From the IMG/VR virus record IMGVR_UViG_3300015214_000029, positions 21,756 through 85,755 of that record: 64,000 nt of DNA; one strand, written 5' to 3'. A model generated the notes under the pieces. It did no database searches and was not told the origin of the DNA. It saw only the letters and a program-made list of their open reading frames with translations. The first letter of the stretch is position 1; every line of letters begins with the position of its first letter. Positions 11,577 to 40,781 of the stretch are shown piece after piece. This stretch comes from a virus (lineage: Duplodnaviria > Caudoviricetes). The position numbers and the translations under genes are program-made.

Positions 11577-12050
11577 CTACTCCCTGAGATCGTCTGCCGT
11601 GCCGCCTGCCAGTAGTTCCGGGCCTATCTTGACCAGAGCCGCCTTTGCCTTGTGGAGCATCTGGTCATAGACTGACAACGGCTTGCCCTCGATCTTGTAC
11701 TGCCAGGTCTGCTTGGGCTCCAGGTACGGGATGAACCAGGCCAAACAAGCGACCGCATCCCGCAGGGTCTCAATGTCCCCCTCTGGTCCGTAGCAGTACG
11801 GACACGGACCCTCGATGTTCTCATAAGTTGCCGGGTCCCAGCCCACTACTGTGATGCCGCTGCCCTCACACTCAACACAGGCTATTTGGTCGCCGCGTAC
11901 TCGCAGAGAGGTGTAGTTGTCGGTAAACTGGACGATATACCCACCGTCTACCAGCCCGATAACCCGCCCGACATCTCCCTCGACAATCCCGTTCCGGATC
12001 TTGTCTGAGGTGTAGATGACTGGCGCTCCAACACGGTACTTTCTAGTCAT
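11577..12050 (-). CDS. Hypothetical protein with CxxC pair (DnaJ-like zinc ribbon)
   Basis: CVECEGSG...CPYCYG; start at MTRKY after GAGGT RBS. Confidence 0.5.
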   Translation of the reverse strand: MTRKYRVGAPVIYTSDKIRNGIVEGDVGRVIGLVDGGYIVQFTDNYTSLRVRGDQIACVECEGSGITVVGWDPATYENIEGPCPYCYGPEGDIETLRDAVACLAWFIPYLEPKQTWQYKIEGKPLSVYDQMLHKAKAALVKIGPELLAGGTADDLRE

Positions 12051-12870
12051 GTCTACCTCGCTGTATGTATTCAAACCGGATCAGCAGCGCCAGCACAATG
12101 ACAAGATAGGCGAGCCCTGCCGGGGGATACCGCTGGTACAGATGTACAAACATTACCCCTACCAGTATCAACCCCAGAATAGCCCCCAGCAGGACACTTG
12201 CCAGCACCCAGCCGCGCATCAGCCTGCCGCTCCCCAATCATCATCCGGGGGCTCTGTCTTTGTCGGCTCTATGAGCAGCATAAGCCCCTGGCTGAAGCGG
12301 ATTGTGACCATTGCCCCGATAAACCCGACCGCCAGGCAGATAGACAGGCCCAGACTGGTGTGCTGGTACAAGAGCCCGGTAAGGACTGCGGTCAGAGTAA
12401 ATAGGGCCAGCAGCACAAATAGTATATACATGTACTACTCCTACTCTGCGCCGGGAAAATCCTCTTCGAGCGCCACCACCTTATCGTACAGGCGCTCCAG
12501 GCTGTCCAGTACCTCAAAGATGTCATCCACCACATCCTTGAAGCGGTTACGCTCTGCATACTCATCGGTGTGATCCGGGACTTCGGACAGTACCTCAGCC
12601 CCCAGGTCGATGATGTTTCCCAGAGCCTTGTCTACTAGATTACTCGCTATGTTGGTACGCATCACTCTACTCCCAGCCAATAGTGGTCGGGTAAAACGTT
12701 CTTGACCTGGCGGATCTCCAGCCCCTCTATCTCGCCCGCCAGCTTCGCTGCTGTCGAGGGGTGAACCTGGCAGATGGTGGGCGACTCGCCATACTTCTGT
12801 GCGTAATAATCCACCGCCCGCTGAAGTCCCACCAGTGAGGGTGAGGCGTCGTACCAGAGCATCCCTATCT

Positions 12871-13236
12871 TCACACCAGACTCCTTTCCCAGGGATCGTA
12901 CAGATCTGCTATTGCGTCGTCTATCGCAGCCACCTGCTCCGGGTCCTGGGGCACAATAAAGAACCCCTGCTCACTCAAGAATAATTCCAGCACTGCCTTG
13001 ATCCGGTTGCGCTGCTCGGCTCGCTGCCGGGCCTGGGCAACCTCGTCCTTCTGCTGCTGAGCAGCCGCATACTTGGACACCGTCGCCTTGTGACAGCCCT
13101 CAGAGCAGAAGTGGTGCTGTATCTCCCCGTGAAACTTGCCGTCCGGCTTGTGCAGGGCATCTGTAATCACCCACTCGGGCTTGGCGATCTCTTCCCCACA
13201 GTTGTCACAGAAGTAGGTATACTTAGCCTTGATCAT
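12871..13236 (-). CDS. Hypothetical zinc-binding protein
   Basis: CDNCG...HFCSEGC motif; GGAGA RBS. Confidence 0.5.
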   Translation of the reverse strand: MIKAKYTYFCDNCGEEIAKPEWVITDALHKPDGKFHGEIQHHFCSEGCHKATVSKYAAAQQQKDEVAQARQRAEQRNRIKAVLELFLSEQGFFIVPQDPEQVAAIDDAIADLYDPWERSLV

Positions 13237-13639
13237 CGTACATCTCCTTAATCCGGGCCTCAATCTCCCGGGCTTTACGCTCGTTGTCCGGCACCTCATA
13301 GGTACCGTCTACCTGCAAGAACATGTCCAGCACCCGCTGAAGGCGCTGAACCCGCTCCCGGTGCAGTGCCTCGCGCTGGGTGCGCCGGATCTCACTGGAT
13401 GTGTAGCGTTTCATAGTCGCTCGTCCCAGAAAGTCAGCGCCACCCGTAAGGCGTAGGCTAGGGCGAAGAAAGGCGTGACCCCCAGAATAACCAGCAGGAC
13501 AAGGGGCCACCAAAGGGCGACAGCGACTACCTGCCAGAGGTTCAGGTCAGACTCTTCTATCATCGCCATGAATAAAACGAAACACACAAAGAGCCAAAAG
13601 ACAACCCCACTGGCTATCATTATGTCCTGTGAGTCCATG

Positions 13640-13990
13640 TCAGGCCCCCCGGTAGCGGTCCTCGCCGTGCCCCTCGCCGTCGATCAGCCCGGCGCTCGCC
13701 CGCTGGTTCAGCCGGTACAGCAGATGGGCAGCGGCATCCTCTAAAGTAACCCCGAGATCCGTGATGCCCTGGACCACCGCCCAGAGCACATCTTCTAACT
13801 CTTCCAGCAGCCGCTCCCGATTCTCGGGCGAGACCACAAAGGGCACCGGTTCGCGCCGCATCTGTTTATTGAGGATGCGCTGGGTCTCGCCCGCTTCCTC
13901 GACCAGCAGGGCAACCGGGTAGATGACCTGGTTCTCGTCCGGGTAGATGGCTGTCTCTGCCACCCGCCGCTGTAAGTCGTTGAGTTCCAT
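13640..13990 (-). CDS. MazG-like nucleotide pyrophosphohydrolase
   Basis: EEAGE...EELEDVLW acidic helix motifs, N-terminal MELNDLQ and C-terminal RL..R...G pattern. Confidence 0.8.
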   Translation of the reverse strand: MELNDLQRRVAETAIYPDENQVIYPVALLVEEAGETQRILNKQMRREPVPFVVSPENRERLLEELEDVLWAVVQGITDLGVTLEDAAAHLLYRLNQRASAGLIDGEGHGEDRYRGA

Positions 13991-14851
13991 AGAATTTGCG
14001 GCAGGGTACTCCCCGTTTTAACGGGGAGGGGAATGCCGCCTTCCTCCTTTTGCGCTTCTCACGATGTGGTGCATCACCTGCCGCCCGAGAAATTCGCTGT
14101 ACGCGGGCGGGATGGCTTGCGCGGTCTCGCGCTGCGTCATGTACCAGTCGATGCCCATTGCCGCCCGCCCCTCCGCTACCCCGCTGAAATGGCCGAAGAT
14201 GCTCCACACCTCGCCCTCGTCCTGCGGCTGGCGTCCGGTGCGCGGTGCCCGCAACCCCAGCGCCTTGTGCGAAACGTGCTCGGGTGCTACCAGCGGCAGG
14301 TTGCTCTCGAAGTAGCGATGCCGGAACATCCGCAGTCCGAACATCGTGCCGCACAGCATCACAGGGTTGTGCAGCGGTGCGCCTGCTACGTTCTCAATAA
14401 TGTACGGCTTGCCGCTATCCACGAGCAGCGCCCGCGCTGCCGCTACCAGGTCGGGGTACTCGTTGCCGAGTACGTTATTCAGCGACGTATACGCCTGGCA
14501 CGGCGGGCTTGCCCAGATGAGGTCAAATGTGCCGAGGTCGAGCGGCGGGCGTAGCGCGTCGCCCCGCACGAAGGCGAACGGGTAGTTCGGCTGGTTGCCA
14601 ATATCGACACCCACGACCTCGAAGCCCGCCATGTGCAGGCCCATCGCCGCGCCGCCCGCGCCGCAGAACAAGTCCAGCGCCTTCATCTCACGCCACCGCC
14701 AGCTGCGTGTACGTAGAACAAAAGTGCGCGTTGACCATGTTATCCCTCTCTGAATATTCTCTCCGCCGGGACGCGGCCCCCAGACGCTAACGTGGGCCAC
14801 GATGCCGTGCGTAGTCTGGGAAGCTCCCCCTTTAAGGGGGAGAGCCGTCAC
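13991..14851 (+). mobile_element. Non-autonomous IS200/IS605 element (tnpB-less) carrying a C5 DNA methyltransferase
   Basis: Left ~66 bp identical to 27203-27268 and right ~100 bp nearly identical to 28460-28564; subterminal hairpins CTCCCCGTT-TT-AACGGGGAG and CTCCCCCTTTAAGGGGGAG; ends in TCAC; preceded by TCCAT like the other copy. Confidence 0.9.
14018..14686 (-). CDS. C5 cytosine DNA methyltransferase (short phage type)
   Basis: Motif I LDLFCGAGG, motif IV SPPCQ, motif VI IENV, RHRYF, AIPPAY; true start MKALDL at 14686; stop codon lies inside the IS left end. Confidence 0.9.
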   Translation of the reverse strand: MKALDLFCGAGGAAMGLHMAGFEVVGVDIGNQPNYPFAFVRGDALRPPLDLGTFDLIWASPPCQAYTSLNNVLGNEYPDLVAAARALLVDSGKPYIIENVAGAPLHNPVMLCGTMFGLRMFRHRYFESNLPLVAPEHVSHKALGLRAPRTGRQPQDEGEVWSIFGHFSGVAEGRAAMGIDWYMTQRETAQAIPPAYSEFLGRQVMHHIVRSAKGGRRHSPPR

Positions 14852-15090
14852 CAGAGCTCCATGTCTTCGGGGTCTGCCTTGACCCCTGCCGGACAGCAGC
14901 AGCGTCGCCAGTAAGCCCGGCCCCAGTAACAAGTTGTTAGTTCTTCAGTTGCCGGGTAGAGTTCGACCAGATAGGTGCCCCGCCCGCCACACTCGCACGA
15001 ACAGGGGTCCTCTTCCTCTACCGGCCGCCCATCTACCCAAACAGTCATGACTTCAGGTGCGACAATAAAAAGTCGATGATACCGGGACAC
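14848..15090 (-). CDS. Hypothetical protein
   Basis: 80-aa Cys-rich ORF; last Trp codon and stop are created at the IS right-end junction. Confidence 0.5.
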   Translation of the reverse strand: MSRYHRLFIVAPEVMTVWVDGRPVEEEDPCSCECGGRGTYLVELYPATEELTTCYWGRAYWRRCCCPAGVKADPEDMELW

Positions 15091-15401
15091 TGGCTGCGGA
15101 CCGCAGCCCTGACCCCCGCCTCAGTGAGTTCGATTAAGAAATCCCGCGTGCGCCACGTACCGCTAACCTTAACAAATCCACGAGCTTCCAAAGATTTAAC
15201 ACTGATCTCGTGTAAAGTACGACCGTCTTCCAGTACATAACCATACAGCCCGTCCTTGAAAGGACGAAACGGCTCCGGGTAGCACCGGGTAATCTCATTC
15301 AGCAGGCTGTACCAACTCCGTGCCTTAACGATCTCCACCTTCAAACTCCGGATAAACCTCGGTCGTCTTATTATAGAAGCAGATCCAACCACTCCCTTCA
15401 A
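15045..15401 (-). CDS. Hypothetical protein, possible winged-helix
   Basis: SVKSLEARGFV...IELTEAG pattern. Confidence 0.4.
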   Translation of the reverse strand: MKGVVGSASIIRRPRFIRSLKVEIVKARSWYSLLNEITRCYPEPFRPFKDGLYGYVLEDGRTLHEISVKSLEARGFVKVSGTWRTRDFLIELTEAGVRAAVRSQCPGIIDFLLSHLKS

Positions 15402-15987
15402 TCAGGCAGTCACAGACCCGACCTTCCTGGCTGTGGTAGTTCAGGTAGCCCGGGCACTGACCGTCCTCACCCTGCTGGTAGGCTTCCACCAAATCCTTAT
15501 AGGGCTCCAGGCTGATGGCCCGCCCGCAGGTGTCCACCCTGCCAGTCTCACTGTAAACACAGGGCGGGAACTGCCCGGGCCGGGTCACTACCGCTTCAAC
15601 CGTTGTATCGCCCCCGTACTCAACTGCCAGCCGCTCGAAGACGGTGTCCAACACACTGAGCCCAGCACTGTACTCCGCCTCACCGCCCATGCCGAAGATC
15701 TCAGCTTCCAGCAAACGGGCCAGCAGGTCCACTTCAGCATCACTCAGGTACACCCGCAACTCCGGCGTCGCCGTTGGCGTCGGGGGTGTAGTTGGCGTCG
15801 CCGTTGGCGTCGGGGGTGTAGTTGGCGTCGCTGTCGGGACCGGTGCTGCCTCTGTTGGTAGCTGCGTGGGTCGCCGGTCCAGCGGCAAGGGTGTCTCCGC
15901 CGAGTCTACCGGGACAAAGACCAGCAGGTTTACTGACAGGATCAGAATTAGAGCAAAGATGGTATAAATAATTGGACTAGAGCGCAC
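15325..15987 (-). CDS. SleB-like cell wall hydrolase with N-terminal membrane anchor and PT-rich linker
   Basis: Hydrophobic N-terminus, PTATPTTPP repeats, LLARLLEAE and VVTRPGQF motifs. Confidence 0.7.
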   Translation of the reverse strand: MRSSPIIYTIFALILILSVNLLVFVPVDSAETPLPLDRRPTQLPTEAAPVPTATPTTPPTPTATPTTPPTPTATPELRVYLSDAEVDLLARLLEAEIFGMGGEAEYSAGLSVLDTVFERLAVEYGGDTTVEAVVTRPGQFPPCVYSETGRVDTCGRAISLEPYKDLVEAYQQGEDGQCPGYLNYHSQEGRVCDCLIEGSGWICFYNKTTEVYPEFEGGDR

Positions 15988-15989
15988 GA

Positions 15990-16226
15990 TTACCCCCAGT
16001 GAGCTTGATGTTTGTGCCGGTAACAGTAGGCATACCCGCCGACCACTGCTCCGGTCTTAATATCTACTACCTCTGGACAGAACGCTGTTTGTCCCCAGGG
16101 TTGATAACTACAGGTCACCTCTCCCCGGCGAATGTGACTCTTCAAATGACTGGCCCAGCCCAGTCCGTTTGATGTGACTAGCTTCCCACAATAATGACAC
16201 CTGCGTTTACCATAAGTTCTGCCCAT
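15990..16226 (-). CDS. Small protein with C2H2-like zinc finger
   Basis: CHYC-x13-HLKSH. Confidence 0.45.
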   Translation of the reverse strand: MGRTYGKRRCHYCGKLVTSNGLGWASHLKSHIRRGEVTCSYQPWGQTAFCPEVVDIKTGAVVGGYAYCYRHKHQAHWG

Positions 16227-16576
16227 CAGCCCACCACCATAAACCTCAGTAACTCAACCCCGAACCGGTACAGGAACTCCGGGATCGGGCGGGGGACGGC
16301 TCCCCTCAGCAGCAGCCAGAACACGATGTCTGGGTGTGGCCTATAGAGTTCATTCCCCCGCCCGCTAGTGCGGAGCCTGTGGCGCTCGAAGCGGTACTTG
16401 GCTTCCTCTTCAAGCTCCCTGCCCCTGTCCGGGAAGACCCTGAGCAGGTACGTGTGCGGGTTGCTGGTCATATATGTATTCAGTCGGTTTTCTACATCGA
16501 CAGCAAGCCCGAACTTGAAATACCCGCCCACCTGGATCACATACCCATCTGGGTTCTTACGCCTGCCCCGCCTCAT
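16226..16576 (-). CDS. T5orf172/GIY-YIG-like domain protein
   Basis: YVI...YFKFG...VENRL..Y.TSNP pattern. Confidence 0.6.
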   Translation of the reverse strand: MRRGRRKNPDGYVIQVGGYFKFGLAVDVENRLNTYMTSNPHTYLLRVFPDRGRELEEEAKYRFERHRLRTSGRGNELYRPHPDIVFWLLLRGAVPRPIPEFLYRFGVELLRFMVVG

Positions 16577-16692
16577 GACACGTAAACGACGCTCGGCTTT
16601 GGACTCGCCAAAACCAGGCGTCGCTTTTTCTCTCCCAGGAAGTCGATGTTCACGGTTACTTGTAGTGGTAATGGCTATTCGGTTGTCACGAG

Positions 16693-16765
16693 CACGTCCG
16701 GTAGGAGTCGAACCTACAGTCCCCGCTTTTGGAGAGCGGTGCGTTGCCTGTTACGCTACGGACGT
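16693..16765 (-). tRNA. trnW: tRNA-Trp (CCA)
   Basis: Full cloverleaf: ACGTCCG acceptor (A1-U72, G73), D arm GCGT-AACAGGCA-ACGC, anticodon arm CCGCT-CTCCAAA-AGCGG, T arm GTAGG-TTCGACT-CCTAC; no encoded CCA end. Confidence 0.95.
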
Positions 16766-16888
16766 ATAAGCCCGAGAGCGGGCTGATGGCACGGGCTGAC
16801 TCTCAGGTATTCCCGCTTTAGGTCTTTCCCCGCCAGAGGAGCCGTCACCCTGCACCCCTGACTTCGCAGTTATCTCTTCTCAATTATC

Positions 16889-16917
16889 AGTATAAGGCAT
16901 TTTTCGCAGGGTGTCAA
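16889..16917 (-). promoter_or_regulatory. sigma70-type promoter for tRNA-Trp
   Basis: TTGACA-N17-TATACT on minus strand. Confidence 0.8.
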
Positions 16918-16947
16918 GCAAGTCATTAAGACTGCTCAGTTGGAATC

Positions 16948-17475
16948 CTAGTGACTCGTCTGCTGCAACCGCTGGCGTATGACCGGCTCCTGGTAGAACT
17001 GCCAGAACTCGGGGGCCACTTCATACCGGCGCGGGATCTCATAGATGATGTCTGTGCCCCGGGTGCCCGCCCAGGTCCGGTCCAACTGGGAGCGCATTGG
17101 CAGGGTATCCAGCCAGCCCTCGACGCGCCGCATCCCGTAACGGGCAACTGCTATCCAGTAGCAGGTGGTGGTGTCGGGGGGCTGGGGCTGGTGTTCCTCG
17201 GGCAGCAGCAGGAAACAATTTACCCCACAGAAAATACGCCAGTGCCACTCTACGCTTGCTGGGACCCTTGCCCTGGATAAAATGCCCTCGTGCATCTCTA
17301 CGGCCTGTAGTGGGCGAAAGCTGAGGTCAGACAAGCCCCGGCGCTCTTCGTACAGCTTACCCTTCAGCCAGGCCCGCCACGAGGGGACCTCGGCGTTGGT
17401 TAAGGTTTCCTGCCCCTGACTCTCAAAGAGAGCCGGGTCATACATGATGAGCAAGTCTAGCTCGGTAACCATCAT
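16948..17475 (-). CDS. Hypothetical protein
   Basis: ORF coupled to the upstream nuclease gene. Confidence 0.5.
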   Translation of the reverse strand: MMVTELDLLIMYDPALFESQGQETLTNAEVPSWRAWLKGKLYEERRGLSDLSFRPLQAVEMHEGILSRARVPASVEWHWRIFCGVNCFLLLPEEHQPQPPDTTTCYWIAVARYGMRRVEGWLDTLPMRSQLDRTWAGTRGTDIIYEIPRRYEVAPEFWQFYQEPVIRQRLQQTSH

Positions 17476-17791
17476 CCAGACTCTTTCCGTCCCCGGGCTC
17501 CCAGCCAAACGCCTGGACTACCAACTGCCCGGGCGTCGTAACACAGTAAACCGGGAAGCCCGCCCACTGCTCAAAGAACTGCTGCTCGTCTTCAGTCAGT
17601 TTCCCGCCCTCATCCTTGATCTCCACTAGGACGATAAAAGGTTCCCAGAGGTCGCGGCGCATTCCACCAACCACGACATCCGGGAACCCCTGGCCTAGCG
17701 TGTGTGTGAGGGCGACCAGAAAGCCTACCTCACGCAGCGTTTCAACCAGTGCCTTCTGATTGCGGTCCGTCTTCCTGCGGTATTTCGTCAT
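17438..17791 (-). CDS. VRR-NUC/PD-(D/E)XK nuclease-like protein
   Basis: GFPDVVV...LVEIK...GKLTEDEQQF motif. Confidence 0.75.
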   Translation of the reverse strand: MTKYRRKTDRNQKALVETLREVGFLVALTHTLGQGFPDVVVGGMRRDLWEPFIVLVEIKDEGGKLTEDEQQFFEQWAGFPVYCVTTPGQLVVQAFGWEPGDGKSLDDGYRARLAHHV

Positions 17792-18021
17792 CGGGTCCCA
17801 GCCTGGAGTGAAGTCGCAGGGCTGCGGCGTTGTCACCATCCCACCAGATACTATCCTCGCGCCGCAACGCGCCGGATTCGATCTGCTCGGACTGGAGCAC
17901 TGCCGCCTGCCCTGTCAAGTTGTAGTAGCCGGTTAGGTCCCGGCGCTGATGCGCCGCTAGAGCCGCCTCGTTCAGTTCGTTCAGCGTCTTCATGGTATAT
18001 CGACTCTCCCTGTTCCTAAAA

Positions 18022-18948
18022 TCAAAGTTCCATCGCATCCGCCACCAGGGGCGCATCCAGGCTGGTGTCCAGGTACCGCTCCGTCACCGCCATCGAGGTG
18101 TGCCCCAGCATGAACTGGGCCTGCTTCATGTCGTCGGTGCGGTTGTAGAGCAGTGTTGCTGCCGAGCGGCGCAGGTCGTGAACCGAAATCTGGGGCAGAC
18201 CTGCCGCCCCCGCCCGCTTCTTGACCACCCGCCACAGCCCATTAGTCGTGATCTGCCCGTTCCACTCATCCGAGGGGGTCAGTGAGACGAAGATGCGCTC
18301 ACTGTCCCCTGCCGGGCGCAGGGCGTGCCATGTCTCAAGCAGTGCAACAGCATAGCTGGCAACCGGTACTGTGCGTACCCGGTGGTGCTTACCCTGGATG
18401 TCCTCAAACTGGGCGACGATCTTGCCCCCCATCTCCCGTTTGCGGAACTGGCCCCAGACCAGTTCCGCAACCTCAAAGACGCGCAACCCACAAGCCAGGA
18501 AGACTGCCAGGATCGCCCGGTCGCGCACCACCAGCCGCTCATCCTCGCCCTCTTCAACCGGGAAGTTAAGCAACTGCCGCATCCCTGCGGCATCCAGCCA
18601 GTTGCCCCGCTTCTGCCCGCGCACCGGAATGCTCTCGACACTCTCTGCTTTACTCGCCAGGTCTGCCGGGATCAGGCCCTCTCGCGCAGCTACCCGGAAG
18701 AACTTGCGGATAGCCGACAGCTTCTTGTTGATGGTAGCAGGCTTGTAGCCCCGCTCGCGCAGCGACCGCTTGTACGCGCCCACTGCCTGTGCCGGGGACT
18801 GAACCCCCTGCCCCGCCGAGTGTGCCAGGAACTTACGGATCTCATCCTCGTACACCTGAGCCGTCTTCTCAGAGTTGGTCTCAGCGACCACCATCTGGAT
18901 GACTGACTCAACCTGGTCATTGAACTGGGTCTTAACTATCAGGGACAT
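18022..18948 (-). CDS. Tyrosine recombinase/integrase
   Basis: Catalytic set intact: GLR, K in KHHRVR, HDLRR, LGH, RY; N-terminal SAM-like domain. Confidence 0.92.
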   Translation of the reverse strand: MSLIVKTQFNDQVESVIQMVVAETNSEKTAQVYEDEIRKFLAHSAGQGVQSPAQAVGAYKRSLRERGYKPATINKKLSAIRKFFRVAAREGLIPADLASKAESVESIPVRGQKRGNWLDAAGMRQLLNFPVEEGEDERLVVRDRAILAVFLACGLRVFEVAELVWGQFRKREMGGKIVAQFEDIQGKHHRVRTVPVASYAVALLETWHALRPAGDSERIFVSLTPSDEWNGQITTNGLWRVVKKRAGAAGLPQISVHDLRRSAATLLYNRTDDMKQAQFMLGHTSMAVTERYLDTSLDAPLVADAMEL

Positions 18949-18972
18949 CCTAGACTCCTTTGTCTATGCCTC

Positions 18973-19091
18973 TCTACTTCTCAGTATATTCTATTGCCTT
19001 TTCCTTGTCAAGAGGTTTCGACAAGAATCGTCAAGACCCGGGCCACACACCCCGGGTCCCGACTTCAAGGAGTCTAGTATGAGTGTGTTGG
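18973..19091. repeat. 119-bp direct repeat copy 1 (minus-strand promoter TTGACA-N17-TATACT, 12-10-12 palindrome, + strand RBS and ATG)
   Basis: Aligns with 20711-20829. Confidence 0.9.
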
Positions 19092-19156
19092 ATAGTGTGG
19101 TGGTCTCTCTACATAGCTTGGCGTTCCAAACGTACCGGCAGAGTAAAGCATAATGT

Positions 19157-20689
19157 TCAGTCTGGCTTTTTCCATATCGTAATGCTTTTTCGCAAAGCTT
19201 CTCTCCCAAACCTCTTCATTTGCTGGCTGCTGTTGCCCTTACGATTAGGAAGCACATACACTATTTGCGGTTCATAGCCGAGTTGTTCCGCCAAGTGGGT
19301 AGTCAACAAGTCAACGGGTATCACTTCGCCTCCGTATCGCACATTGTCATTTACGAAGGCAACATGGGCTCCGGGTTGACACGTGCGCAATACTTCCGCG
19401 AATACAAACGCCAGTTCAATGAAGTACCCCTCTACCATTGACAGAATCCCCCGATTGTTGATCTCGCCCCTCTCCCAGCGAATCCTAAGTGCTTCGTTTA
19501 CCTCTTGAAACACTGGGTTTGATAGTACTATGTCAAGGGTACGCTCGAAACGATCAGAGGCATCGATTGACGCATAGTAATCTCTCAGCTGTTCTACTTT
19601 CGAACGGTGTTCGACCGTGCATGACAGCTGACTCTGACGTAGTTCACGAATCTCCTCTTCATCCACCTTCAGATAGGCAAGTTCAAGTGCATATGTCCGT
19701 GTGTAATCATACCTGTTACAGTAAGGTGGAGATGTAATTACTCCTGCGAACTGATTGGATTCTAGCGTAGGCAAGATTTGCAGAGCGCTTCCTTTGAAAA
19801 GGGTCGCTTGACCCTTCGTCCTTGACGCAAGCTGGAGTTCCTTCACGTCATCAACAATGGTACTTAACGCGCGAATTAAGGCATCTTTGACAGTAGGCAG
19901 ATCGCCCTTGTCCATTCCTTTGATGAGACGTTTTCCTTGCCAAGCACGCTCTCGATTCCTCTGTCTCACCTTGTCCGATCTGCTGTCCCAACGCAGGTAT
20001 TGACCATCTTTACGTGTAAAACTGACTTCTTCGAGAATACTGGTCAGGACAAGTCGTAATAGCACTTTCGCTTCTACGGAAACGTCAAGTAGATCGAACC
20101 ACTCAGTATAGAACATCAAATCGTTTTCAGTCGTATCGGGAAACGCACTGTCAGTGATTGCAAGATGCGGAAACCTGTGACGAGCAGGTCCCGGTTCAGT
20201 TTCTTCGATGAGCTCTAAGATCCTTTCCAGTTCGTCCGTATCATATTCGAACGCATGTGACTTGGCCTCCCATGCTAGATGACAGACAGGGAGAATTTCG
20301 ATGCCGACTGCATTGATCCCATTTGCTATTGCGACCAGTAAAGTAGTTGCGGATCCACTAAATGGCTCAAGTAGTGTTTGACCTGGCTGAATGCCGAATT
20401 TATTAATCAATGACTGGACAAGTTCTGCGGAAAAGCCCTCACGGTACTTGATCCAGCTATGAACCATTTCTCCTTTGTTGCCTTGATAGCTGACAAGCTG
20501 TCGATTGAACTCGTCAGTCTCTTCAAGTAACATCATATACTGTCGCTCTAGTTGACGACGGGCATTCTGAGGGCAGACATCCTCGTGAGAAAAGGTTGTG
20601 CGCACCAAGTCTTTTCGATTGGTATTCAAATCGTTTGAATTCAGCGGTAAAGGCAGTTGCTTCACTCTAATTCCCCTAAATTGTGTCAT
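19157..20689 (-). CDS. Amino (N4-cytosine or N6-adenine) DNA methyltransferase, lower GC
   Basis: EPFSGSAT (motif I) before TSPPY (motif IV); visibly more AT-rich than flanks. Confidence 0.88.
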   Translation of the reverse strand: MTQFRGIRVKQLPLPLNSNDLNTNRKDLVRTTFSHEDVCPQNARRQLERQYMMLLEETDEFNRQLVSYQGNKGEMVHSWIKYREGFSAELVQSLINKFGIQPGQTLLEPFSGSATTLLVAIANGINAVGIEILPVCHLAWEAKSHAFEYDTDELERILELIEETEPGPARHRFPHLAITDSAFPDTTENDLMFYTEWFDLLDVSVEAKVLLRLVLTSILEEVSFTRKDGQYLRWDSRSDKVRQRNRERAWQGKRLIKGMDKGDLPTVKDALIRALSTIVDDVKELQLASRTKGQATLFKGSALQILPTLESNQFAGVITSPPYCNRYDYTRTYALELAYLKVDEEEIRELRQSQLSCTVEHRSKVEQLRDYYASIDASDRFERTLDIVLSNPVFQEVNEALRIRWERGEINNRGILSMVEGYFIELAFVFAEVLRTCQPGAHVAFVNDNVRYGGEVIPVDLLTTHLAEQLGYEPQIVYVLPNRKGNSSQQMKRFGREALRKSITIWKKPD

Positions 20690-20710
20690 TCTGGTCTAAT
20701 CAGGTTCCGT

Positions 20711-20829
20711 TCTACTTCTCAGTGTATTCTTTTGCCTTTTCCTTGTCAAGAGGTTTCGACAAGAATCGTCAGGACCCGGGGTGTGCGGTCCGGGTCCTGA
20801 CTTCAAGGAGTCTAGTATGAGTGTGTTGG
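20711..20829. repeat. 119-bp direct repeat copy 2
   Basis: Aligns with 18973-19091; promoter TTGACA-N17-TACACT points into the methyltransferase. Confidence 0.9.
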
Positions 20830-20873
20830 GCGGGGCTGTGTCATTTCCCCTCACTCAATACCATGATACTCTG

Positions 20874-21182
20874 CTATCTCCCCGATGTCAAGTTTCTCAG
20901 CATCCTCTCCATGTCATCATGGCCCAGTACCCGCTCCAGGATCAGGGTTCCGCTGCTCAAGTATTGGTACAGAATGCGATACCCGTTAGGTCCCCGGTTT
21001 ACATAGCCTATCCACAGGGACGAGTTCTTGACCCGGTGAGCCTTGAACGAGGGCAGCGCCGTGTTCGTCTGTGCCAGCAGCTTCACCTTACGATCTACCT
21101 GTTTTTGGACCTGCCGGGGCAGGTCCTTGTAGTCCTCAACGAACTGCCGCTTCTTGCGGACGGCGTTGACCGGTGTACTCAT
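20874..21182 (-). CDS. RelE/ParE-superfamily protein (putative mRNA interferase)
   Basis: 102 aa; FVEDYKDL..QVQKQV..KV.LL, LWIGYVN..YRILY, VLGHD pattern. Confidence 0.6.
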   Translation of the reverse strand: MSTPVNAVRKKRQFVEDYKDLPRQVQKQVDRKVKLLAQTNTALPSFKAHRVKNSSLWIGYVNRGPNGYRILYQYLSSGTLILERVLGHDDMERMLRNLTSGR

Positions 21183-21873
21183 AGGCCTGCTCCCATATGT
21201 ATGTGCGCAATTCGTCAAGGTCCGCTACCCGGTCCTCGTCATGCGAGACGTGGGGAGCCCACAGATCCATCGGGTCATAGTAGTCCCAGTCCAGCCAGTC
21301 GAACGGGTAACGCTGTGGGTCGAGCTTGTCCCACAGGTACATGGCATAAGCCGTCGCATCTGTCTTCTTGTTCCCGGTAAAGCTCGGGCGCTTACCCAGT
21401 ACCCAGACCCGTGTCGGGGGGTGGTTGTGCCACAGACCCCTCATCCGGTCCTGTCCTTCCAGGAACCCGAGGCGCAGCAGGTACAAGACATGGCGACGAC
21501 TCTGGCGCAACGCCTGGCGCAAAAACGCCTCAGCGAACTTGTAAGGTGGGTTACCCATAACAATGTCAAAGGACTGGTCCGGCAGCGTACTCTTGGTGTA
21601 GTCCTGGATCAGCCAGTCCCCGTAGAACGGGGGGCGCTCGGTAAGGTAGTATTCCAGCCCCGTAACCTGGGACTGGGGCCATCGCTTCCGGGCTGCAAAG
21701 CCCCAGACCCCCAGCCCCGCGCCGGGGTCCAGGATCTTCAGCACCCGGCTGTGCCCATCCAGGGCCCGGGTATCCACCTGCTCCAGCACAGCCTCAATCA
21801 GCCCGATTGGAGTCGGGTAGAAGTCCCGGGCATCCCGGGGGCGCATCTTCTTCTCAGTCATGATGATCGGCAT
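21136..21873 (-). CDS. N6-adenine DNA methyltransferase (phage type)
   Basis: DFYPTP, ILDPGAGLG, NPPY, LLRLGFLEG, RPSF motifs. Confidence 0.88.
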   Translation of the reverse strand: MPIIMTEKKMRPRDARDFYPTPIGLIEAVLEQVDTRALDGHSRVLKILDPGAGLGVWGFAARKRWPQSQVTGLEYYLTERPPFYGDWLIQDYTKSTLPDQSFDIVMGNPPYKFAEAFLRQALRQSRRHVLYLLRLGFLEGQDRMRGLWHNHPPTRVWVLGKRPSFTGNKKTDATAYAMYLWDKLDPQRYPFDWLDWDYYDPMDLWAPHVSHDEDRVADLDELRTYIWEQAYEYTGQRRPQEAAVR

Positions 21874-21874
21874 A

Positions 21875-22744
21875 CTAGACTCCTTCCTCTTCGTCGTCTA
21901 CAAAGTAAACCAGGTTGAGATCCGACCGCTGCTTCATTGCCAGCAGGATCTTCTCATCCGTGCTCACGTTCAACATCCTCAGTATCCGGTTGATGCCCTG
22001 CTTAGCGAGGTCATCGTTGTCACTGAAGTAGAGTTCCCCGATGGGAGCAGACCTGCCGTTCTGCAAAACCACCAGCAGGGGTCCTTCCAGCCGGAAGCGC
22101 AGGTTATAGTCCGGCCCATCCCCTTCCGGGCTGTAGAGCGCCATGCGTAGCTGGCTGACCGTCGCCCCGGGGTCCATTGCCAGGGCCAACAGCTTGGGCT
22201 GGTTGTCCAGGTCCCTGCTGCGAGCCAGCGGGGTGAGTAGGACCAACTTCGAGATGTCGGTCCGGGTCGGGTCCCAGCTTACCTCTCGCATGATCGGCCT
22301 GTTATCCTCACCCATGACTGGCTCTCCCCGCTCATCCCGCTCGGGAATCTTGATGGGGACGCCTGGCGTATAGTTGTCCTCGATGAAGACCTTAGCCGCC
22401 CGCATGTAGTTCTCGATGGTGTCGATAGACAACTCCCCGCCCGTTTCCTTGAGAGCAAACGTTTCAAACTGGAGCCCGTACTGCTTCCTGAAGTCCAGGT
22501 CCAGTTCGTTCCAGTTCTTCTTGAACAGCCAGAGCGTGTGCGCCTCGATAATCGAGACCCCCCGCTTGACCCCCACCGCCATACGCAGCAGACTCAGCAT
22601 GTGCTGAGTCCACTGGGTACGGTTCTCTTCGGTTAGCTCGGGCAGCGATTTCAGGGTGCTGATAATGCGCTGCACCATTGCCGTCGCGCCCTCTGCCGAG
22701 AGGTTAGCAATGTTCAACCCACGAAACAGGTCCAAATCTGACAT
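21875..22744 (-). CDS. Hypothetical protein
   Basis: 289-aa ORF in replication block. Confidence 0.65.
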   Translation of the reverse strand: MSDLDLFRGLNIANLSAEGATAMVQRIISTLKSLPELTEENRTQWTQHMLSLLRMAVGVKRGVSIIEAHTLWLFKKNWNELDLDFRKQYGLQFETFALKETGGELSIDTIENYMRAAKVFIEDNYTPGVPIKIPERDERGEPVMGEDNRPIMREVSWDPTRTDISKLVLLTPLARSRDLDNQPKLLALAMDPGATVSQLRMALYSPEGDGPDYNLRFRLEGPLLVVLQNGRSAPIGELYFSDNDDLAKQGINRILRMLNVSTDEKILLAMKQRSDLNLVYFVDDEEEGV

Positions 22745-22775
22745 TTAGAAGTCCTCATGAGTAGTAGATGTTGGG

Positions 22776-23519
22776 TTAGTGTTGGATGATCTTGGCAATC
22801 ATGACCAACCAATCCGGGGAATCCGGATCGCTCAGCATGATAATATTGGGCCTTGTCTCGGGTACCGTGATACGAGTCCTCTCTCCCATCAACATCGCCA
22901 AGCGGCTGACGTAGTCTGAGTTCAAGGTCAGCGGCTCGGTGTGCGCCTGCTCGATGTCCCCCGCCAGGGGCACATACTCCACCTCACCCACTTCCGTCGC
23001 CTGAACCGTGCCCCACACATCCGACTCGGTAATGTGAACGCTGATGAACCGCAGGTTGTTGGGCGGCATCCCCGGCATAACCCGGCTGATTTTGATCAGG
23101 GAGCGCAGCGCCTCACTCTCCACCGTCAACCCGACCATAATCGGGTCTCGGGCAGCGGTCTCTGCACTCTCTACCGGCAAGGGTGCCCGGGCCTGAACTG
23201 CCAGGCTCGCCTTGAACCCGTTGTCCCCCCGCAGGGACACACGCTTATTATACGACAAAGTCAGGGTTTCTGCCCTAGATGCTTTCACGAGTTGTGACAG
23301 CGGCTCTGACAGGTAGAACTCCCCATCCTCGTCACACTCCACCACCTGGGGATAAGCCAGGACGAGTCCAATCGCCCCGGCTGGCCCCTCGATGCTGGCA
23401 GCGAGGCGCAGAAAACCATCCTTCACCACAAACCCAATGGCTGGAGCCGCCTCGGGCATCAGCCCGTTGATCTTATCCAGCCAGGGCCGCAGCGACCCGG
23501 TCTCGACGGTAATTTTCAT
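22776..23519 (-). CDS. Sliding-clamp (DNA Pol III beta)-like protein
   Basis: MKITVE..L...L.KI start, LRL.AS and LNSDYV..L patterns; adjacent to DNA polymerase; divergent. Confidence 0.45.
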   Translation of the reverse strand: MKITVETGSLRPWLDKINGLMPEAAPAIGFVVKDGFLRLAASIEGPAGAIGLVLAYPQVVECDEDGEFYLSEPLSQLVKASRAETLTLSYNKRVSLRGDNGFKASLAVQARAPLPVESAETAARDPIMVGLTVESEALRSLIKISRVMPGMPPNNLRFISVHITESDVWGTVQATEVGEVEYVPLAGDIEQAHTEPLTLNSDYVSRLAMLMGERTRITVPETRPNIIMLSDPDSPDWLVMIAKIIQH

Positions 23520-25308
23520 CCTTTGACCACCTATGCATTAAGTCGGTTTCAGCTATCGTCTTGACATCCGGGCAGATTTCTTGTCCGGCCTGCTCCATTG
23601 CTGCCGTTACCTGGTAAGCGGCAAAGTCCTCGATCTCCCGGTTGGTGCGCACCACTAGCTCGTCGTGGATCTGGAGCGCGATTGCCGCGTCTGGCTGGTC
23701 GGGCTCGATCCACTGCTCGTAGAGCAGCACCATTGCATACTTCATCATGTCCGCTGCCGTGCCCTGGATGGGCATGTTGCGGGCTTCCCTGCCGATCTTC
23801 CAGTCTTCCATCTGGGTCCGGTTGGGCCACCAGCGACGCCTGCCCCAGCGAGTGCTGGCGTATCCGTAGCGCATGACCTTCGGCCCCTGCTGGTCGCCCC
23901 AGGCGAACATGCCGGGGAAGGTCTGGCGCAGGTTATTGTAGAACTCCCGGGCCTGCGCCTCGGATACATTCAACACCTGCCGCAGTTTGTTGACCCCACC
24001 CCCGTAACCCGCCGCCAGAACCCCTTGCTTGAACATCTGTCGCTCGGCTTTGGTAATCTTCCGCCCCAGAGTCAACTCCCCGAAAGCGATATACACATCC
24101 TCTTCATTACAGGCACGGATCAGGTTCGGGTCCCCGCAGATCTGTGCCATGACGCGCGGTTCCTGCTGCGCGTAGTCAGAGACCGTGAAGATGTACTGTT
24201 CCTCAGCCAGTGTTGGCCCGGGCTTTGACTGGGGCAGGAACAAACGCCGGATGTCGGGCTCACCCTCGACCGGGCGGGCTCTCACATTCTGTAGGTTTGG
24301 GTCCTTGCAGCTATAGCGTCCAGTACCCGGCCCGTTCTGGTTCCAGTCCGGGTGTATCCGGCCTGTGACCGGGTTGATGTGGCTGGGGTAGTCCAGTTTC
24401 CACATCGTATTCCAGTTCGCCCAGTCCAGGTAGTCCCGCAGGAAGATCACACGCGGGTCTTCGTCCGGGCTGCGCAGCGTGCTTTCCAGATGATCCAGGA
24501 CAGCCTCAAGCTCGGGAGCCTGGGTCGTCTCTACCTGGATGCCAAACGTCTCCAGCAACCACTGGCGCTGTGCCGTGCTGTTCAGGTTGACGATGGGCGT
24601 TGCCTCGTCCCCGAAGAGCGTGGTTTGCAGGGGCACGTTCAGGTACTTTGCCATGTGTGCCACTCGCTGGCGCAGGGTTCGCTCGATGACCTGGGTGTAC
24701 TCGTCCCACAGGTTCAGGTCAAAGCCCACCCCCTCTAAATACATGTGGGTCGTGACTCGCACCAGCCGGTTCTCGATGCCAACGATGCGCCCGATGCCCT
24801 GGTTGCTGATGTCTTCCATCTGCTGGCGGCGGATCTCAGGCAGGTAGAGTACGTCCTTCTCCATGTACTCAAGCTGCCGGGCGGTGAAGTCGCCGCTGTG
24901 CTCGAAGAACGACAGCCGCACTGCCTCATCCTTGTTGACTCCCAGCCGCCGCAGCAAGACGTTTGCCAGGGCATTGCTGCGCGTCCGGTCTCCGGCGTAC
25001 AGCAGTCGCTCCACGACCAGGGTATCCCACACATTAGTGGTGATTATCCCCAACTTGTGGTTGAGGAAAGCCAGGTCAAAGCGGGCGTTGTGCGCGATCT
25101 TCGTCTGCTTCGGGTTGGTCAGGATGGGGACCAGTTGTTCGAAGTGATCCCGCAGCACGAACGCCTGCTCCCCATCCGACACCTGTACCGACAGCATCCG
25201 GTCCTGCCAGGGGTTGGCGGTTTTCTTTTTGTTTGTGACGGTGGTCTCGATGTCGATCCCGAGCACCGGAACCCCGTATATGTATTCAGGTAGCCTATCG
25301 ACCAGCAT
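23473..25308 (-). CDS. polA: Family A DNA polymerase (3'-5' exonuclease plus polymerase, no 5'-3' exonuclease)
   Basis: DIET, HNARFD, TGRYSCKDPNLQN, DYAQQEPR, RQMFKQGVLAAGYG, NMPIQGTAAD, QIHDEL. Confidence 0.95.
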   Translation of the reverse strand: MLVDRLPEYIYGVPVLGIDIETTVTNKKKTANPWQDRMLSVQVSDGEQAFVLRDHFEQLVPILTNPKQTKIAHNARFDLAFLNHKLGIITTNVWDTLVVERLLYAGDRTRSNALANVLLRRLGVNKDEAVRLSFFEHSGDFTARQLEYMEKDVLYLPEIRRQQMEDISNQGIGRIVGIENRLVRVTTHMYLEGVGFDLNLWDEYTQVIERTLRQRVAHMAKYLNVPLQTTLFGDEATPIVNLNSTAQRQWLLETFGIQVETTQAPELEAVLDHLESTLRSPDEDPRVIFLRDYLDWANWNTMWKLDYPSHINPVTGRIHPDWNQNGPGTGRYSCKDPNLQNVRARPVEGEPDIRRLFLPQSKPGPTLAEEQYIFTVSDYAQQEPRVMAQICGDPNLIRACNEEDVYIAFGELTLGRKITKAERQMFKQGVLAAGYGGGVNKLRQVLNVSEAQAREFYNNLRQTFPGMFAWGDQQGPKVMRYGYASTRWGRRRWWPNRTQMEDWKIGREARNMPIQGTAADMMKYAMVLLYEQWIEPDQPDAAIALQIHDELVVRTNREIEDFAAYQVTAAMEQAGQEICPDVKTIAETDLMHRWSKDENYRRDRVAAALAG

Positions 25309-25320
25309 GTTACCGCTCCC

Positions 25321-26937
25321 CTAGAACAGTGTGGACTGCGTCTGCTCTTCTGGACTGGGCTTGCTCAGAACTCGCTCGGCCCGCCGCTCCAGCACCGGGT
25401 CCAGCTTCCCACCTACCTTTGAGACGAACTGCTCCAAGTGTGAAAATACCTGCCGCCTGCCGGTGTACATGTCCTCACCCAGCAGCGGAGTATAGATCCG
25501 GTTGTACTGGGGCTCCCAGCCAATGCGCACATTGACCCCCGGGACTCCGCCCCGGTACTTCTGCACCAGCAACCAGACGTGCCCGGCGTCCATGCCCTCG
25601 GGTACCTCGAAGTCGATGCCCACCTGCGCCATGTAGATGGGATTCCAGACTTCAGCCATGATGTCCGAGGCGTGCCGTAGCGATTGGCTGTAGCGGGTGC
25701 CCCCTACCCCGGCGATCTTGAACCGGTTGCTGCCGGTCTCCCCGCCGAAGGATGACTGGCTGATGACGATGATCGACGCCCCGAGCATACGGCTGAGCGC
25801 CTGGTAGTTGTGGATCAGCCGGTCCAGCCACTCTTCTTTGGACATGCCGGGCAGTCGCTTGTCCCCGTGCAGTTCCATGTAGTCGGCGGACATCTGCCAT
25901 ACCGGGCCTTTGTCCCCGGTATGCATGGAGTCCAGCCGGTACTCAATGGCACTGGTCTCCGCCAGGTTGGTGTCATCTACGTACAGGGGCAGCACCCCCA
26001 GCCGCTCCACCCAATCCTTGAACCGGATGTACTCGGGTGAATTTTTGAACGTGTCCGGCTTGCGGCGCAGCCGGGTGGTGTCGAACCCCGAGAGCATTGC
26101 CGCTGAGCGGAACAGCAGGTCTACGTCCTGCATCTCCATCGAGTTGATGGCTACGCAGCCCTGTATCCCATTGACATACAGCCCCATTGCCGTGCCCAGG
26201 TTGACGGCATGAACCAGGCCCGACTTGAAGGACCCCGCCATGCCGTGAATGGTGGTCAGCGTGCGAACCGGGAACAACCCCGCTTCCAGGAAAGGCTCAA
26301 ACCCACAGGGCAGCAGAGAGAGTTGCTTACCACTCTCAATGTCTCCCAGCCGGGCCAGGGCATCCTCAGCCACGAAGCTGAGGTGTTTGTAGCCCGCCTC
26401 GTCTGTGCGTAAAAACTCCCGTAGATCCCGCACATACCCGTTCATCCACTCGACCGGGTCCCCGATCTCCCCAATTGCCTTCTCGAAGGAGTCGGGATCG
26501 TCCAACACCCGGCCCATCACCCGGCTGCGCAGTGCCGTCCGGTAGAGGATGCCAACCCGGTCTACCTGCTGGACGTGGTAGCGGTAGCCCTGGTAGTCGA
26601 ACTCGGTGATGCCCCAATACTGGGGCATCTTGTCCACCAGAGTCTTAACGTACCGGCGCAGTTCGGTCTTGACGGTGGGCGGCAGGGAGTCCACCACGTT
26701 CGCCACCGTGATGCCCTTGCGGTCCATGAAGCAGATCTGGATCGCCTGCCAGATAGCGGCGTGGTCCTGGTGCCCGGTGTCATAACGCCCCTCGGCATCA
26801 TAGATGAATTTGTCATGGGTCAGTTCACCCAGTGCCTCACGAGTTTGATCGGGAAACAACAGGGTATAGCCCAGGACGATCTGCTCGCGCTCGTAAGGTG
26901 AGATCTGCATGTTACTTAAACCAATCCATGTCAACAT
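25321..26937 (-). CDS. DnaB-like replicative helicase
   Basis: GMAGSFKS P-loop variant, SMEM, LYVDD, DYMEL, IIVISQ motifs. Confidence 0.8.
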   Translation of the reverse strand: MLTWIGLSNMQISPYEREQIVLGYTLLFPDQTREALGELTHDKFIYDAEGRYDTGHQDHAAIWQAIQICFMDRKGITVANVVDSLPPTVKTELRRYVKTLVDKMPQYWGITEFDYQGYRYHVQQVDRVGILYRTALRSRVMGRVLDDPDSFEKAIGEIGDPVEWMNGYVRDLREFLRTDEAGYKHLSFVAEDALARLGDIESGKQLSLLPCGFEPFLEAGLFPVRTLTTIHGMAGSFKSGLVHAVNLGTAMGLYVNGIQGCVAINSMEMQDVDLLFRSAAMLSGFDTTRLRRKPDTFKNSPEYIRFKDWVERLGVLPLYVDDTNLAETSAIEYRLDSMHTGDKGPVWQMSADYMELHGDKRLPGMSKEEWLDRLIHNYQALSRMLGASIIVISQSSFGGETGSNRFKIAGVGGTRYSQSLRHASDIMAEVWNPIYMAQVGIDFEVPEGMDAGHVWLLVQKYRGGVPGVNVRIGWEPQYNRIYTPLLGEDMYTGRRQVFSHLEQFVSKVGGKLDPVLERRAERVLSKPSPEEQTQSTLF

Positions 26938-27202
26938 GGTTGACGTACAGCTTGCCGCTGGGCATCCGCTCGTTGCGGATCACCTCCAAACCCAGCAGGG
27001 TATCCGGCAGGTCCTCGATCCCGTGCGGGTTGACCAACAGGTGAGTCGGCTTGCGGTAGTACCGCTTCTCAAACTGGCGGATGGCTCGCCGGGTCTCATC
27101 GGTGATGATCTCCAGGCTCGACCCCCGCTGACTGAAGCTGCGAACGATCCCGCTGAACTTGAGATCCTGGGTGCCCACTGCCGGGCGTCGCTTTAGGTCC
27201 AT
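26912..27202 (-). CDS. Hypothetical protein
   Basis: 96-aa ORF whose ATG abuts the IS left end. Confidence 0.55.
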   Translation of the reverse strand: MDLKRRPAVGTQDLKFSGIVRSFSQRGSSLEIITDETRRAIRQFEKRYYRKPTHLLVNPHGIEDLPDTLLGLEVIRNERMPSGKLYVNHVDMDWFK

Positions 27203-29931: not shown

Positions 29932-29945
29932 GGTCTCTCCCTATC

Positions 29946-30299
29946 TCATGAACGCCTCTCTTCCAAGAGCTTGCCGACGAGCTTGAACGAGAACGGGTAC
30001 TCGGACACCTGGAGCGCCATGCGAATCCCACGCTCTACCTCACCCGCCCCGTACTTCTGCTTGAGCAGATTACAGTGACGCAGCAGGATAGGCCGGGACA
30101 ACTGCTCTTCTATGGTCTCCCCGTACCGCTGCCTCTGTTGGCCCAGCATAAAGTCCACCAGCGTCGTCGTCTTCTCCCCCAGCTTGGGCTCGAAGTGTGA
30201 CCCGAACGGGTCACCCCTCAGGATAGGATGTATGGCATCCACCTCGGGGTGACCCGCCCACTGGTTGCCTAGATGCGGGCGCTGCTTACGCCTCAGCAT
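29946..30299 (-). CDS. Hypothetical protein
   Basis: 117-aa ORF in replication block. Confidence 0.55.
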   Translation of the reverse strand: MLRRKQRPHLGNQWAGHPEVDAIHPILRGDPFGSHFEPKLGEKTTTLVDFMLGQQRQRYGETIEEQLSRPILLRHCNLLKQKYGAGEVERGIRMALQVSEYPFSFKLVGKLLEERRS

Positions 30300-30302
30300 A
30301 GA

Positions 30303-40571: not shown

Positions 40572-40696
40572 GTTAGACTCCTCTCTAGTCCTCTCTCCCG
40601 GGCCGGGCACCCCGCAGGGCACCCGACCGCTTGAGAGAGGAGTTCTACCCTACCTTTAGGGTATTCGAAAACTTACGAGTTGTCAAGCAACTCATA

Positions 40697-40781
40697 GGTG
40701 GAGATGCCGGGTGTCGAACCCGGGTCCGCAAGCTTGCCGGGTTGCCCCGGGTCATTGCCCACGTCGAAGCCAGTCATCCCC
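40697..40781 (-). ncRNA. Minimal tmRNA-like RNA (tRNA-like domain only)
   Basis: GGGGATG/CATCTCC acceptor with G3-U70, A73-CC; stemless D loop ACTGGCTTCGAC; GGAC then T arm CCGGG-TTCGACA-CCCGG; mRNA-like domain replaced by CCGGG-GCAA-CCCGG. Confidence 0.85.

Follow-up and report, generated by a model that had tools for sequence, protein, structure and literature searches.

Insertion sequences (ISs) of the IS200/IS605 group are regarded as minimal elements that consist of a transposase, a nuclease, and a guide RNA, and the known derivatives of this group are either gene-less miniatures or intron chimeras. The gene-less miniatures include the palindrome-associated transposable elements (PATEs), which often carry an omega-RNA, and it has already been proposed that such gene-less derivatives act in trans through their omega-RNAs (Meers et al. 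2023, bioRxiv 10.1101/2023.03.14.532601). In our literature search, no description was found of a natural IS200/IS605 shell in which tnpB is swapped for a passenger gene and the guide-RNA module is kept. Here, an 861-bp element at positions 13991-14851 of a 64,000-nt stretch of viral DNA was analyzed; this stretch, hereafter the window, forms bases 21756-85755 of an IMG/VR virus genome that is complete at 85,755 bp and bears direct terminal repeats. The element is a tnpB-less shell composed of a left end (LE), an antisense methyltransferase gene, and a right end (RE) with an omega-RNA scaffold, and it is probably a non-autonomous, cargo-bearing IS200/IS605 derivative, the cargo of which most likely serves anti-restriction and which is probably moved in trans by a host TnpA.

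Both ends of the cargo element were aligned with those of an intact partner element on the plus strand of the window (27203-28564), which comprises a left end, tnpB (27406-28548), an omega-RNA scaffold (28475-28564), and a guide (28565-28580). The LE (13991-14070, plus strand) forms an outer stem (13998-14003 with 14034-14039) and an inner hairpin (14009-14015 with 14022-14028, loop TTTTAA); it shows one mismatch between 13991-14061 and 27203-27273, followed by weaker identity onward to approximately 14070. The RE (14752-14851, plus strand), which includes the 3'-terminal remnant of tnpB, shows approximately 91-96% identity to 28465-28564, and its last 90 nt differ by four substitutions and by the deletion of 1 nt in a loop. 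TCCAT is located upstream of both copies, both copies finish in GAGCCGTCAC, and each end is present in two copies only in the whole virus genome, where shuffled controls expect 0. This alignment and copy count confirmed the match of both ends to the intact element that had been claimed in an earlier note on this DNA, and they support its further view that tnpB was replaced by an antisense methyltransferase in an IS200/IS605-type shell. The tnpB tail remnant also reads as that note wrote it, apart from the final residue, which had wrongly been given as L; the remnant is LNILSAGTRPPDANVGHDAVRSLGSSPF and reads on without the TAA stop because of the 1-nt deletion. Between the two ends lies the foreign segment (14071-14751, minus strand), which shows no similarity to the tnpB element and stands in for the -10 box of the tnpB promoter, the 5' untranslated region, and nearly all of tnpB. 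The LE homology ends right where the tnpB copy has the -10 box TGgTATAAT, and the left-end promoter is therefore absent from the cargo copy. The partner tnpB encodes a protein of 380 aa with the Pfam domains HTH_OrfB, OrfB_IS605, and Cas12f1-like_TNB, which matches ISDra2 TnpB with an E value of 3e-44 and with the RuvC and zinc-finger motifs aligned. The virus genome contains three tnpB genes. The other two belong to other families and are located at window positions 50407-51495 (minus strand) and at 7.7-8.8 kb of the genome, outside the window; the latter locus (L128) gave a weak match to the omega-RNA model (42 bits) with a different adjacent motif (..CTAC).

The cargo gene (14018-14686, minus strand) encodes a short orphan C5 DNA methyltransferase of 222 aa, which was assigned by PF00145 (E value of 2e-6 over residues 1-101), by phrog_363, and by a profile comparison with M.HaeIII (E value of 7e-7). 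Motifs I (FxGxG), IV (PCQ, with the catalytic Cys), VI (ENV), VIII, and X are found on a Rossmann-type fold, and the family-invariant residues FCGAGG, PPCQ, IIENV, RHRYFE, and AIPPAY are all present. The AlphaFold (AF2) model of the protein has a predicted local distance difference test (pLDDT) score of 95.6, and its top fold matches in Foldseek (probability 1.00) are the catalytic domain of DNMT3A/B and M.HaeIII. Phage methyltransferases of 205-225 aa form a very large family, to which the cargo protein belongs and which includes mycobacteriophage genes annotated as "DNA methyltransferase". The search of GenBank phages gave only methyltransferase homologues, with approximately 66% DNA identity. 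The nearest relative, P0001, is 91% identical to the cargo protein and possesses a different, native C-terminal tail. In the cargo protein, the sequence departs after ...RQVMHHI into 14 residues (approximately 209-222) that are encoded by the reverse strand of the LE, and approximately 17 poorly conserved native C-terminal codons are lost. The description of this gene as intact thus holds for the conserved residues and fails for the last approximately 17 native residues, which are swapped for the 14 LE-encoded ones. The stop codon (14018-14020) is located in the loop of the inner LE hairpin, where the earlier note had placed it. Based on the different tail of P0001 and the LE-encoded tail of the cargo protein, the methyltransferase gene was captured from elsewhere. 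The short upstream open reading frame (ORF) that had been noted previously is present as a 16-codon ORF (14688-14738, minus strand), as read from the sequence, which stops 1 nt short of the methyltransferase ATG and has its Shine-Dalgarno sequence on the junction of the cargo and the RE; it may be either a leader or the 3' remnant of a gene that preceded the methyltransferase in the donor.

At the RE of the cargo copy, the omega-RNA region is retained, in agreement with the earlier claim, as a complete, covariation-supported scaffold (14763-14851, plus strand), for which the flank would supply the guide. Covariation was examined in an alignment of nine right ends, with slid alignments as controls; in the four helices, 95.8% of the cells are paired (34-46% in the slid controls), and 17 of the 32 pairs show compensatory changes. 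The scaffold opens with the hairpin of stem 1 and continues through a possible pseudoknot to stems 2, 3, and 4, the last of which has a UUUA loop. The candidate pseudoknot would join GAC in the stem-1 loop with GTC at positions -5 to -3, a pairing that is possible in eight of the nine sequences, and its pairs are nearly invariant and thus without covariation support. The module is approximately 90 nt in length, with variable insertions upstream across the family, and its topology mirrors that of the ISDra2 scaffold, the functional form of which is 116 nt and from which the stem and pseudoknot topology was taken for comparison (PMC10097598). In the cargo copy, every helix is kept; stem 1 is shortened from 6 to 4 bp, and in stem 3, one position is a C-U mismatch and one pair shows a compensatory change from A-U to G-C. 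The covariance model R1 gives 89.5 bits for the cargo copy versus 107.8 bits for the tnpB copy, and no matching family was found in Rfam for the omega region. Single-sequence minimum free energy folding of the scaffold together with the guide gave an alternative fold for the cargo copy; this result does not settle the matter, since at most 0.6 kcal/mol separates the consensus fold from the minimum. A promoter scan of 1.6 kb detected three sigma-70-like sites versus 0.4 expected, all by consensus match only. The match TTGACC-16-AATATT (14731-14758, plus strand) crosses the junction of the cargo and the RE and would place a transcription start at approximately 14765, at about the first base of stem 1. 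The search for public runs that contain this stretch listed no RNA run. The would-be guide CAGAGCTCCATGTCTT (14852-14867, plus strand), which is recognized by its position in the flank directly 3' of the RE, occurs once in the window.

The family to which the shell belongs was traced through TnpB relatives with 60-76% identity, which are found in metagenome-assembled genomes (MAGs) of Chloroflexota/Anaerolineae and in three viral contigs. Throughout this family, the left end starts right after CCAT and the right end closes with GAGCCGTCAC, and from there onward the sequences diverge; in approximately 30 of 30 insertion sites, the motif before the left end is CCAT, and the flanks after TCAC are unrelated to one another. 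The ends possess no terminal inverted repeats and carry subterminal hairpins that are distinct at the LE and the RE. The double stem of the left end and the terminal hairpin of the right end covary across the relatives, the outer stem doing so in L096 and L113. Insertion thus occurs directly 3' of a fixed CCAT without target duplication, as is characteristic of IS200/IS605 elements. Furthermore, two relatives (L093 and L103) encode a Y1 TnpA of 129-130 aa (PF01797, E values of 1e-34 to 1e-37) between the left end and tnpB, and their left ends are 80-87% identical to that of the cargo element; the lineage is therefore a true IS605-type family, and the parent lineage with Y1 TnpA and TnpB is found in Chloroflexota/Anaerolineae genomes. 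In one Phototrophicaceae MAG of the host lineage, the 51 hits of the omega model comprise intact tnpB copies, decayed copies, and approximately 20 tnpB-less elements, the last being miniatures of approximately 350-400 nt with a left end and a scaffold only. Two of these miniature copies, L124 and L126, have different flanks. The miniatures (L124, L126, and L150-L166) carry a promoter-like TGTGCTAAAAT, many of them with an insertion in stem 4, and each is located after CCAT at a different site. A longer tnpB-less element of the host-lineage MAG (L149, 630 nt) contains no convincing ORF, and an exact search with a 25-mer of the left end in viral contigs gave no match.

Contigs of four public runs were aligned to window positions 12000-30500, and the empty-site sequences were deduced from the contig joints and from the termini of the proteins encoded on the same contigs. 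The proposal that the cargo element is a discrete insertion was borne out by near-identical phages without it. In runs X2 (soil) and X3 (compost), phages that are approximately 97-98% identical to the window lack both elements. At the partner locus, the X2 and X3 contigs bridge 27202 to 28565, so that exactly the tnpB element is absent, and the primase-like protein P0129 on an 8945-nt contig ends in ..GGF versus ..GGFW in this phage, which confirms a scarless tnpB empty site and validates the cross-check with proteins. The tnpB element is thus an insertion polymorphism, with the empty site GTCCAT/CAGAAAC located at a TGATG stop/start overlap between the primase-like gene and a 96-aa gene. Because this site is scarless, the own guide of the tnpB element matches natural alleles perfectly. 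Other X2 and X3 contigs match the tnpB element to its exact ends (27199 and 28564) and continue into other flanks, which indicates that this IS also occupies further sites in the two communities and that these probably lie in the host.

At the cargo locus, the X2 and X3 contigs bridge 13989 to 14848, so that all but 3 nt of the cargo element is missing; one base is ambiguous. On a 5344-nt contig, the 80-aa protein encoded at the right of the locus ends in ..MEL and the MazG-like protein encoded at the left starts with MMELND (P0124 and P0127); taken with the joint, these termini give the empty cargo site TTCCAT-CAT-CAGAGC, or CTC TGA TGA TGG AAC on the coding strand. The relatives accordingly carry the empty allele TTCCATCATCAGAGC, as opposed to the filled flanks TTCCAT and CAGAGC, and the empty site TTCCATCAGAGC predicted in the earlier note was not the one found. 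The alternative TTCCATCACCAGAGC was rejected because P0124 and P0127 require T as the third extra base. Thus, the search for empty sites and other cargo-bearing copies that had been suggested recovered the empty sites of both elements, the joint being exact for the tnpB copy and the cargo site differing from the prediction by an extra CAT. A third allele, ending in ..MELF, is present on a 1937-nt contig, and the C-terminal variants of the 80-aa protein are therefore ..MELW (this phage), ..MEL, and ..MELF. The 3-nt difference could have arisen through slippage in the TGATGA/CATCAT repeat of either lineage, through non-canonical integration, or through selection for motif-escape alleles; an outgroup would be needed to give the direction of the extra event, and the search for one returned only one 90% cluster for the 80-aa gene. 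Approximately 18 indels were counted over the 18.5 kb aligned, and at this density it would be unusual for an unrelated indel to fall no more than 3 nt from the junction; tandem repeats are, however, more prone to slippage than sequence in general.

Further copies of the cargo region were found in other samples. A 766-nt contig from X2 contains CCAT, the left end, and the methyltransferase with 96.6% identity to the window and with unlike sequence on both sides, at a depth of 11.7 versus 40 for the phage. X10 contains methyltransferase pieces identical to the window, and an independent ENA assembly encodes an identical 277-aa read-through ORF (P0122) that runs from the right end through the methyltransferase into the LE-encoded tail. 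These three observations demonstrate that the element is real and discrete. A 21-mer across the junction of the LE and the methyltransferase gave no match in JGI metagenomes, and searches for IMG/VR relatives through the primase-like or the MazG-like protein returned none or only proteins with 35-38% identity.

The structure of the cargo element, the family membership of its ends, its scaffold, and its insertion polymorphism are established by these data. Illegitimate recombination swapped the tnpB promoter and gene for a foreign piece of approximately 680 bp with the methyltransferase on the opposite strand, and the transposase-recognized left-end hairpin and the last approximately 100 nt, with the omega-RNA scaffold in full and the cleavage end TCAC, were kept. 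Because the cargo is co-oriented with the phage operon, the methyltransferase could be expressed by read-through. It most likely methylates the phage DNA against host restriction, and this protection may be the reason for the phage to keep the insertion. The unit from LE to RE would be moved by peel-and-paste transposition, with a host-encoded Y1 TnpA acting in trans, and the gene-less miniatures in the host-lineage genomes would move by the same route.

Several findings weigh against such a mobile, cargo-bearing derivative. No Y1 TnpA is encoded in the element or in the complete virus genome, which extends to the whole genome the absence of tnpA that had been stated for the window. Stem 1 is weakened, with a pairing probability of 0.27 in the cargo copy versus 0.99. 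An omega-RNA scaffold was found near methyltransferase homologues in none of 80 viral loci, and cargo was found in none of the 50 omega copies examined among the 51 in the host-lineage MAG; from these cargo-less omega copies and scaffold-less methyltransferase loci, it follows that cargo capture is rare and could be a dead end. In addition, only one insertion site of the cargo element has been fully read, the second context being the 766-nt contig from X2, and the 3-nt departure of the cargo site from canonical insertion or excision requires at least one extra event.

A rather unlikely alternative is the homing drive described in the earlier note, in which the cargo omega-RNA with the guide CAGAGCTCCATGTCTT is loaded in trans by the phage TnpB, element-free alleles are cut, and recombinational repair copies the cassette. 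This alternative is consistent with the complete scaffold, in which all helices are kept with one compensatory A-U to G-C change, with the promoter-like TTGACC-16-AATATT positioned to start at stem 1, and with the intact cognate TnpB in the same genome. Furthermore, natural element-free relatives carry the full 16-nt guide match, X2 and X3 themselves also contain the cargo-region sequence, at lower depth, and the action of gene-less derivatives in trans with TnpB has already been proposed (Meers et al., bioRxiv 10.1101/2023.03.14.532601). However, the vacant allele reads TTCCAT CAT CAGAGCTCC..., and the guide match is thus located behind TCAT and not behind CCAT; when the target is counted from the true CCAT, its register is lost at position 3 and beyond. 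Since the motif is CCAT in approximately 30 of 30 insertions, TnpB would have to possess a hypothetical motif tolerance to cut the natural allele. The cargo copy lacks the left-end promoter and has a weakened stem 1, and every miniature of the family also keeps the scaffold, so that scaffold retention is not specific to homing. The drive could not be upheld as it had been written, given a guide match that follows TCAT in a family that uses CCAT and the loss of the -10 box of the left-end promoter.

It is improbable that the locus is not a mobile unit, either as a resident methyltransferase flanked by two IS copies that underwent two internal deletions or as an immobile recombination relic spread by ordinary phage recombination. 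The methyltransferase is encoded on the same strand as its neighbors, and illegitimate junctions are found on both sides: at one, the methyltransferase 3' end is fused within the left end, and the other lies inside the 3' end of tnpB. CCAT is also found at 14735-14738, near the right junction, flanking insertions are plausible because the IS family targets gene junctions in this phage, and the 3-nt mismatch to canonical insertion fits as well. In contrast, the relatives lose the methyltransferase together with the LE and the RE, cut at the ends of the element, and show no methyltransferase without these ends. The native tail of P0001 differs, and the gene therefore came from elsewhere; the X2 contig with the left end and the methyltransferase has other flanks; and a collapsed composite would itself remain an LE-to-RE unit that TnpA could mobilize.

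Also quite improbable is the further reading that the cassette works as an RNA-guided drive, by which a beneficial cargo would spread among co-infecting phages, and that the junction is an arms-race site. The two other alleles seen at the junction each carry three extra nucleotides, in frame, among the first bases that follow CCAT: the CAT allele (..MEL*, MMELND) and a second allele (..MELF*). In both, the flanking genes are intact and either the motif or the guide register is broken, which resembles what drive-resistant targets would look like. An assembly chimera, in which IS ends were joined to an unrelated methyltransferase contig because within-genome repeats such as these ends can mislead assemblers, was rejected as next to impossible on the basis of the identical P0122 ORF in the independent ENA assembly, the presence of 99% of the sampled words in run X1, the X10 pieces identical to the window, and the X2 contig that crosses the junction of the LE and the methyltransferase.

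The favored cargo-bearing IS200/IS605 derivative lies where the stop of one minus-strand phage gene meets the start of another, and the surrounding genes are likewise on the minus strand. The CCAT target or transposon-adjacent motif (13987-13990, plus strand) abuts the LE and also forms the ATG of the left neighbor, a MazG-like pyrophosphatase gene (13640-13990, minus strand; PF03819, phrog_229). The right neighbor is the 80-aa gene (14848-15090, minus strand), for which no function was assigned and the last codon (Trp) and stop of which are supplied here by the RE. Elsewhere in the window, an X3 relative has 535 different letters in place of 10 nt at 16721-16732, inside the tRNA-Trp gene (16692-16765), which could be an insertion or an intron-like element in or beside the tRNA gene of the relatives. 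A 1738-bp segment (18993-20732) is missing from an X8 relative, with the joint within a 40-nt repeat, and this difference fits a deletion or an insertion of a repeat-flanked cassette. At 23740-23779, a short, highly conserved segment within a 611-aa gene (23473-25308), many contigs in all four runs match just approximately 40 nt and diverge on both sides. Finally, an 85-nt match to Rfam tmRNA (40696-40781, minus strand; 70 bits, model ends only) looks like a miniature tmRNA-like gene.

The cargo element raises the question of whether derivatives reduced to the guide RNA can serve as cargo carriers that TnpB, acting in trans, retains or spreads. This question is relevant to the origin of cargo movement by RNA-guided systems, such as CRISPR-associated transposons. 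The cognate intact TnpB in the phage, the cognate TnpA in related elements, and the natural filled and empty alleles in public metagenomes provide material for direct tests. The element also points to a route by which phages may gain genes whose most likely role is anti-restriction, namely through single-strand transposons that land precisely at gene junctions.

With respect to known systems, the cargo element shares with the IS200/IS605 elements (IS605-type with tnpA and tnpB, IS1341-type with tnpB only, and the ISDra2 TnpB model) the subterminal hairpins, the lack of inverted repeats and of target duplication, the insertion directly 3' of a fixed tetranucleotide, and a right end that overlaps an omega-RNA with a flank-derived guide. 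In contrast to these elements, it possesses neither tnpA nor tnpB, carries an unrelated antisense gene instead, and has lost the left-end promoter. The topology of stems 1-4 and the UUUA loop, with a candidate pseudoknot, corresponds to that of ISDra2, whereas the scaffold of the cargo element is only approximately 89 nt in length. PATEs are likewise non-autonomous, keep the LE and the omega-RNA/RE, and presumably use TnpA, and perhaps TnpB, in trans, and approximately 20 such copies of the same family are present in the Phototrophicaceae MAG; the cargo element differs from them by its conserved 222-aa methyltransferase ORF, which is fused to the left end, and by its location in a phage genome. 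IStrons, which combine an IS605-type element with a group I intron, offer a parallel, since in them, too, a second functional module rides in an IS605 shell and makes insertion less costly; in the cargo element, this module is protein-coding and presumably useful to the phage instead of being a self-splicing RNA, and tnpB is absent. The cargo protein itself resembles the short methyltransferases of the mycobacteriophage type (Pukovnik gp82; phrog_363), falling within their family of approximately 205-225 aa with 45-68% identity to many members and, for Pukovnik gp82, 66% DNA identity over 370 nt. In contrast to the cargo gene, those methyltransferases are ordinary resident genes, and none of 80 viral loci has adjoining IS ends or an omega-RNA scaffold. 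In concept, the locus also resembles the free-standing homing endonuclease genes and the "intronless homing" of T-even phages, in which a cassette is present or absent at a gene junction among co-infecting phages and a nuclease could bias inheritance. Unlike in T-even homing, the nuclease here would be RNA-guided and encoded 12.5 kb away, its cut is putative, and the natural target carries a non-cognate adjacent motif.

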